Both the position numbers and the translations under genes were made by a program. A model generated the notes under the pieces. That model was not told the origin of the DNA and made no database searches. It saw only the letters and a list, made by a program, of their open reading frames with translations. Shown one piece after another: positions 6,798 to 8,409 of a stretch of DNA of 16,062 nucleotides (within the stretch, counting starts at the first letter, position 1; every line of letters starts with the position of its first letter). Source of the DNA: Candidatus Heimdallarchaeota archaeon (GTDB lineage Archaea; Asgardarchaeota; Heimdallarchaeia; Heimdallarchaeales; Heimdallarchaeaceae); assembly GCA_016840095.1 (NCBI GenBank), contig JAEOSZ010000123.1, positions 1-16,062 on the forward strand, in the 5' to 3' direction.

Positions 6798-7106
6798 CTA
6801 GTTTTTCTCTGATCTAACTTGTTTGAGACAAATTTTACAATAAACAGGTCTAATTCCATCAGGTTTGAAAGGAACTCTTATGGTTTTTTCACATCTTGAA
6901 CATTCAGCTGTGTGGAAGTAAGTAGGTTTTTTTCTTGATCTATCATAATTGGGTCTTTTTTGTCCAGTCCTAACATTATTTCTTGTATATGGTTTACTTT
7001 CACTCCTTTGATGAGGTTTTGTATTTGTATTTTGATAACTCCTTCTTGAGTCATTTGATCTCTCATTTTGAGTTCTTTTTGTGGTTTCTCTTTTTACTTC
7101 TGTCGT
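6798..7106 (-). CDS. CxxC-x17-CxxC zinc-finger protein with disordered Arg/Lys-rich N-terminus (102 aa), putative ACG start; absent from the ORF track
   Basis: Manual translation: (M)TEVKRETTKRTQNERSNDSRRSYQNTNTKPHQRSESKPYTRNNVRTGQKRPNYDRSRKKPTYFHTAECSRCEKTIRVPFKPDGIRPVYCKICLKQVRSEKN*. Exactly 17 residues separate the CxxC pairs, with the family signature VPFKP..RPVYC. There is no in-frame ATG/GTG/TTG after the upstream TGA at 7115-7113. Confidence 0.88.
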   Translation of the reverse strand, partial: TTEVKRETTKRTQNERSNDSRRSYQNTNTKPHQRSESKPYTRNNVRTGQKRPNYDRSRKKPTYFHTAECSRCEKTIRVPFKPDGIRPVYCKICLKQVRSEKN

Positions 7107-7174
7107 GTGTTTTCACCTTTTATAATTTTTAAATTAAAAAAAATAAAGATTGAAAGGAATTCGGAATTGGTTTG

Positions 7175-7192
7175 AAAGACTAATTAGTCTTT
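7175..7192. repeat. Perfect 18-bp palindrome
   Basis: AAAGACTAATTAGTCTTT, spanning the stop codon of the 23-aa ORF. Confidence 0.85.
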
Positions 7193-7251
7193 TTCTTTGT
7201 TGGAGCTTTAGTTGTTGAAGTTTTCTTCTTTGTTGACTTCTTCTTTGCCAT
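7180..7251 (-). CDS. 23-aa lysine-rich micropeptide MAKKKSTKKKTSTTKAPTKKKTN
   Basis: ATG at 7251 preceded by GAGGA-ATAAAT (RBS at good spacing). 10 Lys and no acidic residues. Collinear with both neighbouring small ORFs. Confidence 0.68.
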   Translation of the reverse strand: MAKKKSTKKKTSTTKAPTKKKTN

Positions 7252-7289: not shown

Positions 7290-7436
7290 TTATGATGCTT
7301 CCTCAGGATAATCGTCATAATATGAATCTTCTTCAAAATCTTCATATTCTTCAAATTCATCATATTCTTCGTCATCCCATTTTTCGTCATACCATTCTTC
7401 TTTTTCGACTAGCTTATTTTTATCTCTTGGATCCAT
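7290..7436 (-). CDS. 48-aa hyper-acidic, aromatic-rich microprotein
   Basis: MDPRDKNKLVEKEEWYDEKWDDEEYDEFEEYEDFEEDSYYDDYPEEAS*: 24/48 D/E and 10 W/Y/F. GAGGT RBS 9 nt upstream. Strong GAN codon periodicity. Confidence 0.75.
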   Translation of the reverse strand: MDPRDKNKLVEKEEWYDEKWDDEEYDEFEEYEDFEEDSYYDDYPEEAS

Positions 7437-7704: not shown

Positions 7705-8409
7705 GTGAAAATCTTGAAAATCAAGTTAAGTAAACCAAATGAATGGGGAAATTTCATCCATCCTGAAACACTAGAGATTAAGGAAATTGTAGGAGAAATA
7801 CCTGAAAAAGCCATTGTAATAATTCGAAAAAAAGAATATCGTTCTGAGCTAAGTAGATCTGTTGTATCTACCAGATATGGGGTGGTTTCTAAAGGAACTT
7901 TGTTATATTTAACAAAAAAAGATATATCAAAGAAACTAGCTAAACTATTTGTGAATTATACACACAAGCATGAGAAGATTCCTCCCAAAGTAACTATCTC
8001 AGAGAAGAGAGTTGATAACAAACCTGTTGAAATAACATATAATTACAGTACCAATGAATCTTTTCAATTTCTACTAAGTGAAGAGTTGTTAGCAGGTGAA
8101 AATCCAAAAAAATTCATTGAAAAAATAATAACTACTTCAGATAATTTATTTTCGAAAAAGGAATCCTCAAAACAATGGAGAGTAGATAATGCTCCTCATG
8201 GGAGATCATTGTGTAAAAAATGTAAACGGCAAATTAGAGTAAGCGAATTAAATTTAAGAGAAATTAAGGAAAAGGACGATCCTTCTACAACGGAATTCTA
8301 TCACTTTAGCTGTTTTCCTTTTACTAAATATGATCAGTTTTCCATCCATGGAATTAAGAGTTTATCAGAAGAGGATCAAAGGAAAGTAAGAAAAAAAATA
8401 GAAAAATAA
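7705..8409 (+). CDS. Protein with unknown N-terminal domain and C-terminal PARP-type zinc finger (zf-PARP)
   Basis: WRVDNAPHGRSLCKKCKRQI..SEL...FYHFSCF...IHGIKSLSEEDQRKVRK matches the CxxC...HxxC zf-PARP pattern, including the G..L..EDQ..(I/V)R tail. The start may be TTG at 7714 (GGTGA RBS at 7704-7708). Confidence 0.8.
   Translation: MKILKIKLSKPNEWGNFIHPETLEIKEIVGEIPEKAIVIIRKKEYRSELSRSVVSTRYGVVSKGTLLYLTKKDISKKLAKLFVNYTHKHEKIPPKVTISEKRVDNKPVEITYNYSTNESFQFLLSEELLAGENPKKFIEKIITTSDNLFSKKESSKQWRVDNAPHGRSLCKKCKRQIRVSELNLREIKEKDDPSTTEFYHFSCFPFTKYDQFSIHGIKSLSEEDQRKVRKKIEK

Follow-up and report, generated by a model that had tools for sequence, protein, structure and literature searches.

Initiation at ACG, a near-cognate codon, is known in eukaryotes and viruses, for example in AAV VP2 and the Sendai virus C′ protein. 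Bacteria have rare start codons of their own behind a Shine–Dalgarno (SD) box, such as the AUU of infC, which encodes IF3, and the AUU of pcnB, and these AUU starts are believed to restrict or regulate output. RNA editing in the chloroplasts and mitochondria of plants changes start codons from ACG to AUG. We know of no C-to-U mRNA editing that has been described in archaea and, to our knowledge, ACG is not listed as a start codon in NCBI table 11. AUG, GUG and UUG are regarded as the start codons of archaeal genes, and gene finders recognise no others. A review covers ACG as a near-cognate start in eukaryotes and in the viruses that infect them (PMC4705826), and ACG start codons in chloroplast genes are mentioned in a separate study (PMC4626046). 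Ribosome profiling of Haloferax volcanii classed about 30% of the putative alternative initiation sites as near-cognate, and the authors put these sites aside because they might be false positives (PMC7261190). For small proteins of Methanosarcina mazei with the CxxC-x17-CxxC domain (TIGR04272), translation has been shown, as has zinc binding for two members by ICP-MS (PMC12704099). Our searches of the full-text literature did not bring up any paper on archaeal genes that start at ACG.

Here we describe a gene for a protein with this domain in the genome of a Candidatus Heimdallarchaeota archaeon (G000; a 3.44 Mb assembly of 165 contigs, with 33% GC and 89% complete), which is known from a single assembly. 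The window, by which we mean the whole stretch of DNA analysed, is contig C138 of this genome and is 16,062 nucleotides long. Judging from its sequence and that of its relatives, the ACG at positions 7106-7104 is probably the initiation codon of this gene, which we call the CxxC gene.

Frame and start region of the CxxC gene

On the minus strand, sequence and translation give a frame that leads from a TGA stop (7115-7113) through AAA, CAC, ACG (7106-7104), ACA and GAA to a TAG stop at 6800-6798. An earlier note on this DNA had held that the frame contains no ATG, GTG or TTG and is closed upstream by that TGA. The ORF listing and our codon scripts agree, as none of these three codons occurs among the 104 codons that lie between the two stops. 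The same note had placed an archaeal-type SD box, AGGTGA, 6 nt before the ACG, and this is indeed what the sequence contains: the start context reads AAAAGGTGA-AAACAC-ACG, with AGGTGA at 7118-7113 (7113..7118, minus strand) and a spacer of 6 nt. The box is complementary to the 16S 3′ end of a genome of the same genus, and its own TGA is the in-frame stop that closes the CxxC frame upstream. Counted from the ACG, the proposed coding sequence occupies 6798..7106 on the minus strand and comprises 102 codons plus the TAG stop, as delimited by translation, domain matches and orthologous ORFs. The start region is unfolded and A-rich (z -0.47). From base composition, we estimate the chance of a stop-free run of 104 codons at 33% GC to be roughly 3e-4; the ORF is conserved in relatives as well, so the frame did not arise by chance.

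Other routes into the frame were considered and rejected. Read-through of the TGA would lead back through the codons AGG AAA TAT AAT AAA TTT to a TAA at 7136-7134, with no start between. A 62-codon ORF that begins with ATG overlaps the CxxC gene out of frame (6878..7066, minus strand) and was judged spurious: it contains no domain, its composition is unlike that of the family, and its counterpart in the genome G016 of the same genus is 28 codons long and dissimilar. We also rejected a start at its ATG (7066) followed by a later frameshift, because the zinc-finger frame is already family-like in composition upstream of that ATG; the arrangement shows no conservation in relatives.

The encoded protein consists of a basic, low-complexity N-terminal part followed by a CxxC-x17-CxxC treble-clef-type zinc-finger domain at residues 64-98 (6813..6917, minus strand; C138:6813-6917 in the genome search). 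These C-terminal 35 residues match TIGR04272 with 46.1 bits against a cut-off of 36 (E 3e-12) and PF23477 (zf_Tbcl_2) with 45.5 bits against a cut-off of 27 (E 6e-12). The two CxxC pairs read CSRC-x17-CKIC, with VPFKPDGIRPVYC, the family core VPFKPDG.RPVYC is present, and the CxxC pairs and core columns are invariant in the orthologue alignment. The gene product is a genuine member of the CxxC-x17-CxxC domain family. G000 also encodes a 49-residue paralogue on contig C145, which has the same SD box and starts with ATG. Across the genus, the same domain is also repeated in tandem, with 4-5 copies per protein, in proteins that are 325-445 residues long (for example G000:C48:14670-15389 on the minus strand, G011:C69 and G006:C177), several of which have an apparent GTG or TTG start.

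The CxxC gene is the last member of a conserved cassette. It is preceded by an acidic 48-codon ORF (MDPRD..., 7290..7436, minus strand), with counterparts in G016, G020 and the metagenome locus L183, and by a Lys-rich 23-codon ORF (MAKKK..., 7180..7251, minus strand), with counterparts in G020:C24 and L183. A divergently oriented gene whose product has a PARP-type zinc finger at its C terminus (7705..8409, plus strand; PF00645, 44.6 bits) serves as a synteny marker. The cassette also occurs in G016, L183 and the metagenome locus L227, and the PARP-type neighbour is found in the same three. Across the cassette, the micro-ORF products measure about 45 residues (acidic) and about 25 residues (Lys-rich). 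G020:C24 carries both micro-ORFs without a CxxC gene, and the copy of G020 that has the ACG lies on contig C82.

Conservation of the ACG codon in orthologues

Because gene callers cannot call the CxxC gene, we searched for orthologues by six-frame translation of DNA and on the contigs of the few proteins that had been called. The window protein is missing from the protein collection that we searched, because gene finders accept only AUG, GUG and UUG, and it found a single match there, because callers miss such genes. A profile search of 1.8 billion representatives returned three further full-length members (P0015, P0016 and P0024), and a sequence search with P0129 added another (P0151). The start-codon tally given below covers the members for which DNA was at hand; P0015, P0016 and P0151 lie outside it. 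Scans of metagenome and genome contigs returned mostly paralogues from Patescibacteria and methanogens, with the metagenome locus L030 as the sole new orthologue, and searches across the class (83 genomes) and the phylum (400 genomes) found the subfamily only within genus g1.

A GGTGA motif followed by 5-6 nt and an in-frame ACG was found in seven distinct orthologues, the window included, which come from three genomes of the genus (G000, G016 and G020) and four sets of metagenome contigs. The spacer is 6 nt long in the window and in L030, where the frame contains no canonical start (in L030, none in 105 codons), in L089 of G020, where the first canonical start is a GTG at codon 51, in L027 (= L028), where it is an ATG at codon 8, and in L227 (= L228 = L229), where it is an ATG at codon 11. 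With this spacing, the TGA of the SD box is an in-frame stop. In L008, the locus of G016 that is syntenic with the window, and in L183 (= L184), the spacer is 5 nt long and the GTG inside the SD box is in frame. The same ACG recurs in contigs from independent samples, namely in L027 and L028, in L183 and L184, and in L227, L228 and L229. The orthologous proteins are 31-49% identical to that of the window, and the end branches of the family tree measure 0.4-1.2 changes per site, so that silent sites are saturated. The public gene call at L027 (623-961) translates a TAG as Gln and so arrives at 112 residues; in the standard code, this TAG terminates the ORF directly after the zinc-finger domain, where the ORFs of the other members end too.

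A further relative, G015 (L084), encodes a protein that is 75% identical to that of L183. Its start site reads GGTGA-CAGTT-ATG-ACA-ACA-CGT, compared with GGTGA-CATTT-ACG-ACA-ACA-CGT in L183, so ATG and ACG interchange at one homologous, SD-spaced site. The proteins are short and the deep forks of the family tree are unresolved, and we make no claim as to whether the ATG of G015 is derived. The earlier note, which had proposed the ACG start behind the SD box, had also considered that all close orthologues might have ATG, or that the ACG might be a recent ATG-to-ACG mutation or an assembly error. The orthologue comparison gave the opposite picture: ACG is kept in all seven members besides G015, which has ATG at the same site. 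This result supports the ACG start, and the conservation of ACG in orthologues excludes the explanations by recent mutation or faulty assembly.

Codon usage indicates constraint on the ACG at the level of the nucleotide triplet. ACG accounts for 3.6% of the Thr codons in the long ORFs of G000, and ACA and ACT together for 87%. Each of the five orthologous ORFs that we counted contains a single ACG, which stands behind the SD box, and ACA, ACT or ACC is used for the other 35 Thr codons. The chance that ACG would be retained as an ordinary Thr codon in even four independent lineages is about 2e-6. ACG is therefore conserved beyond synonymous expectation, and this at a site where the relative G015 has ATG. 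Because AT-rich mutation pressure favours C-to-T changes, which here would create ATG, the C retained at 7105 argues for selection. The bases that follow the codon are conserved as well (ACGA, then mostly CA).

Conservation of the residues behind the ACG helps to locate the start. The first ten codons of L227 (TTNNSSEEDY) match those of L089 (TTKISSEEDY) and lie ahead of the first ATG of L227 at codon 11; BLAST aligns the two proteins only over their C-terminal 56 residues, and their middles no longer align. Ahead of the ATG of L027, T-T-E-x-x-x-E is common to L027 and the window, with synonymous GAA/GAG differences. Such conserved residues ahead of the first ATG are evidence that translation would begin at or before the ACG. 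Because the closure of the frame lies two or three codons ahead of the ACG, the start must fall in a short interval, and ACG is the sole conserved codon in the interval that reaches from this closure to the ACG.

Start codons and initiation machinery in the genome

We did not find the 16S gene in the G000 assembly, which is 89% complete, and used that of relatives instead. In G001, which belongs to the same genus, the 16S 3′ end reads GGATCACCTCCT, with the anti-SD CACCTCC, so AGGTGA can pair with it over six bases. We then tallied the codons of G000 that stand 3-9 nt behind AGGTGA and begin an ORF that is 80 codons long or longer and has no canonical start further upstream. ATG was found 128 times, with a spacing peak at 4-6 nt, TTG 21 times, ATT 8 times (five of them at the spacing where ATG peaks) and GTG 7 times; ATA, CTG and ACG were found once each, the ACG being that of the CxxC gene itself. 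In this position, ATT is as common as GTG, and a count with a five-base SD gave the same picture.

Pfam confirms four of the ATA and ATT starts, which open genes whose domains reach upstream of any canonical start. These are the genes for the PolD large subunit DP2 (ATA; C3:28293-31865, plus strand, L239; domain from residue 14, first canonical codon 75), NMD3 (ATT; C14:9951-11045, minus strand, L233; domain from residue 8, first canonical codon 71), F420-0:gamma-glutamyl ligase (ATA; C102:49828-50574, plus strand, L231; domain from residue 9, first canonical codon 57) and a nucleotidyl transferase (ATT; C11:28625-29707, plus strand, L232; domain from residue 7, first canonical codon 17). All four starts sit 5 nt behind (A)GGTGA, and the domains precede the first canonical codon by 10-60 codons. 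G000 thus appears to start core genes at near-cognate ATT and ATA codons behind an SD box, which makes an ACG start mechanistically plausible. The ACG start itself is exceptional in G000: it is specific to the CxxC family and lies outside the common start repertoire.

A tRNA scan of the incomplete G000 assembly did not recognise an initiator tRNA; only one tRNA with a CAU anticodon was detected, and it does not look initiator-like, so that the initiator gene either is absent from the assembly or escaped recognition. The tRNA-Thr(CGU), the decoder of ACG, contains an intron and otherwise looks ordinary (G000:C122 near 107949-108040). Between helix 45 (...CTGCGGA) and the anti-SD (TGGATCACCTCCT), two related genera carry an inserted hairpin of about 30 nt in their 16S rRNA, located at about 1470-1515 minus in L182 (G001, same genus) and about 1470-1512 minus in L181 (G041). 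The two stems differ by compensatory changes, and a third genus of the family is without the insertion (L180, G045, 2955-2980). It is conceivable that this expansion adjoining the anti-SD, which we saw in the 16S of relatives, might bear on start-site selection.

Proposed mechanism and alternatives

We consider it likely that the ACG serves in near-cognate initiation by the initiator tRNA and is held in place by selection. Pairing of AGGTGA with the 16S 3′ end would position the small ribosomal subunit with ACG in the P site, where the initiator Met-tRNA would read the codon with a C·A mismatch at the middle base, giving the N terminus M-T-E-V-K-R. The A-rich, unstructured start region would favour ribosome access, and output would be lower than from ATG. 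We infer from these features that the CxxC gene is translated, that the initiator tRNA decodes ACG as Met and that Met is the first residue. Members of the family may differ in detail. In G016 and L183, the in-frame GTG inside the SD box could serve as the start instead. The codon directly before the ACG, which is CAC in the window, is ATC, ATA or ATT in L030, L089 and L227, where it could share or take the initiator role.

That ACG has been held for so long suggests selection for a weak start with low or conditional output, presumably for a regulatory purpose. Weak or stringency-dependent expression would fit with ACG having been kept despite mutation pressure towards AT. It is rather doubtful that the codon goes further and acts as a selected sensor of initiation stringency, with output rising only when proofreading by aIF1 and aIF2 relaxes. 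The earlier note had pointed to autoregulation of the infC type. The rare start is conserved among orthologues, as in infC; the analogy has no support from the product, whose sole domain is a zinc finger and which is not the discriminating factor, or any initiation factor. The aIF1/SUI1 gene lies elsewhere, on contig C163, and has a canonical start.

We find it improbable that C-to-U editing of the mRNA at 7105 turns ACG into AUG, as happens in plant organelles. Editing would account for a genomic ACG exactly where a close relative has ATG and for the conservation of all three bases, each of which would be needed for editing to yield AUG. However, the ATT and ATA starts of core genes in G000 are not convertible to AUG by C-to-U changes, whereas near-cognate decoding covers the ACG, ATT and ATA cases with a single mechanism.

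Still less probable is a start elsewhere in the frame, for example at an internal AGG and independently of the SD box, which would yield a shorter protein and leave ACG to be kept for another reason, for example as part of an RNA- or DNA-binding motif (ACGA). The conserved bases around the codon do leave room for such a nucleic-acid motif. Of the first 68 codons in the window ORF, however, only the ACG and three AGG lie one base away from ATG. In addition, the peptide directly after the ACG is conserved at the protein level through synonymous GAA/GAG changes, and G015 has ATG in place of the ACG.

Initiation at the GTG inside the SD box (7116-7114), on a leaderless or short-leader mRNA and with a +1 slip on the A run into the zinc-finger frame, is very unlikely. 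This reading draws on the in-frame GTG of G016, L183 and G015, on the 4-5 A's that follow GTG in the window, L027 and L030, and on a T-rich, TATA-like stretch that the window, G016 and G020 have some 22-31 nt ahead of GTG. Yet an in-frame GTG simply follows from a spacer of 5 nt instead of 6 nt, five of the seven members have this GTG in a different frame, and G015 has ATG at the ACG site. Moreover, there is no slippery run in L089 (GTGAAAC) or in L227 (GTGATAAAT, with TGA and TAA in the ORF frame), which nevertheless keep both the out-of-frame GTG and the in-frame ACG. In L183, the SD box lies 8 nt after the stop of the Lys-rich ORF, so the mRNA of L183 is not leaderless. A homopolymer error in the A run after GTG, which was suspected because GTG is in frame in G016, was rejected: the four A's recur in L027, an A run is lacking in L089 and L227, and the ACG is in frame throughout.

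We give least credence to a decaying or silent relic, in which an ATG-to-ACG change killed the start, or to a sequencing or assembly error at the ACG: standard callers call no gene here, the protein is absent from the collection and G000 is represented by one assembly only, but all seven ACG lineages retain an intact ORF (83-108 codons) that encodes a high-scoring domain, for three of these lineages there are assemblies from two or three independent samples each, and a dead gene at 33% GC would gain stops quickly.

Discussion

Near-cognate initiation itself is known, and what would be new here is its SD-guided, archaeal and conserved form. The deeply conserved ACG of the CxxC family, together with the ATA and ATT starts of PolD and NMD3, suggests a broader choice of start codons than has been assumed in these relatives of eukaryotes, in which SD placement of the bacterial type would be combined with near-cognate decoding like that of eukaryotes. 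The locus is also a practical warning for the annotation of Asgard genomes, in which relatives of the window gene are mis-started at the GTG inside the SD box or truncated to a downstream ATG, and it offers a concrete and easily tested case. If the ACG did act as a sensor of initiation stringency, the family would be a natural reporter of start-codon selection on the line towards eukaryotes, because it belongs to an Asgard lineage with AUU and AUA starts in core genes and, in the same genus, a 16S hairpin by the anti-SD.

Among the described systems, the M. mazei CxxC proteins (PMC12704099) have the TIGR04272 domain in common with the Asgard protein, and the study of them reports no unusual starts. 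The Asgard protein differs by its long, basic, low-complexity N-terminal part and by its place in a cassette with acidic and Lys-rich micro-ORFs. The near-cognate sites of H. volcanii hint that such codons can initiate translation in archaea; they are not conserved main gene starts, whereas the ACG of the window is the only available start and is conserved. Editing in plant organelles resembles our case in that a genomic ACG stands where homologues have ATG, but it needs dedicated factors and cannot explain the ATT and ATA starts of G000.

The closest bacterial parallels, infC and pcnB, share with the CxxC gene a non-canonical start that is conserved in orthologues and normally spaced from its SD box. 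They differ in that the codon here is ACG and that the encoded zinc-finger protein is not linked to the fidelity of initiation. With ACG initiation in eukaryotes and their viruses, the likeness would lie in the use of the initiator tRNA, the mismatch at the middle base, an output below that of AUG and selection in particular genes. There, the ribosome finds the codon by scanning and Kozak context, whereas in the gene of the Asgard archaeon SD placement would take that part. Were the ACG to sense initiation stringency, it would be the archaeal counterpart of the AUU of infC or of autoregulation through poor start context in eukaryotes.
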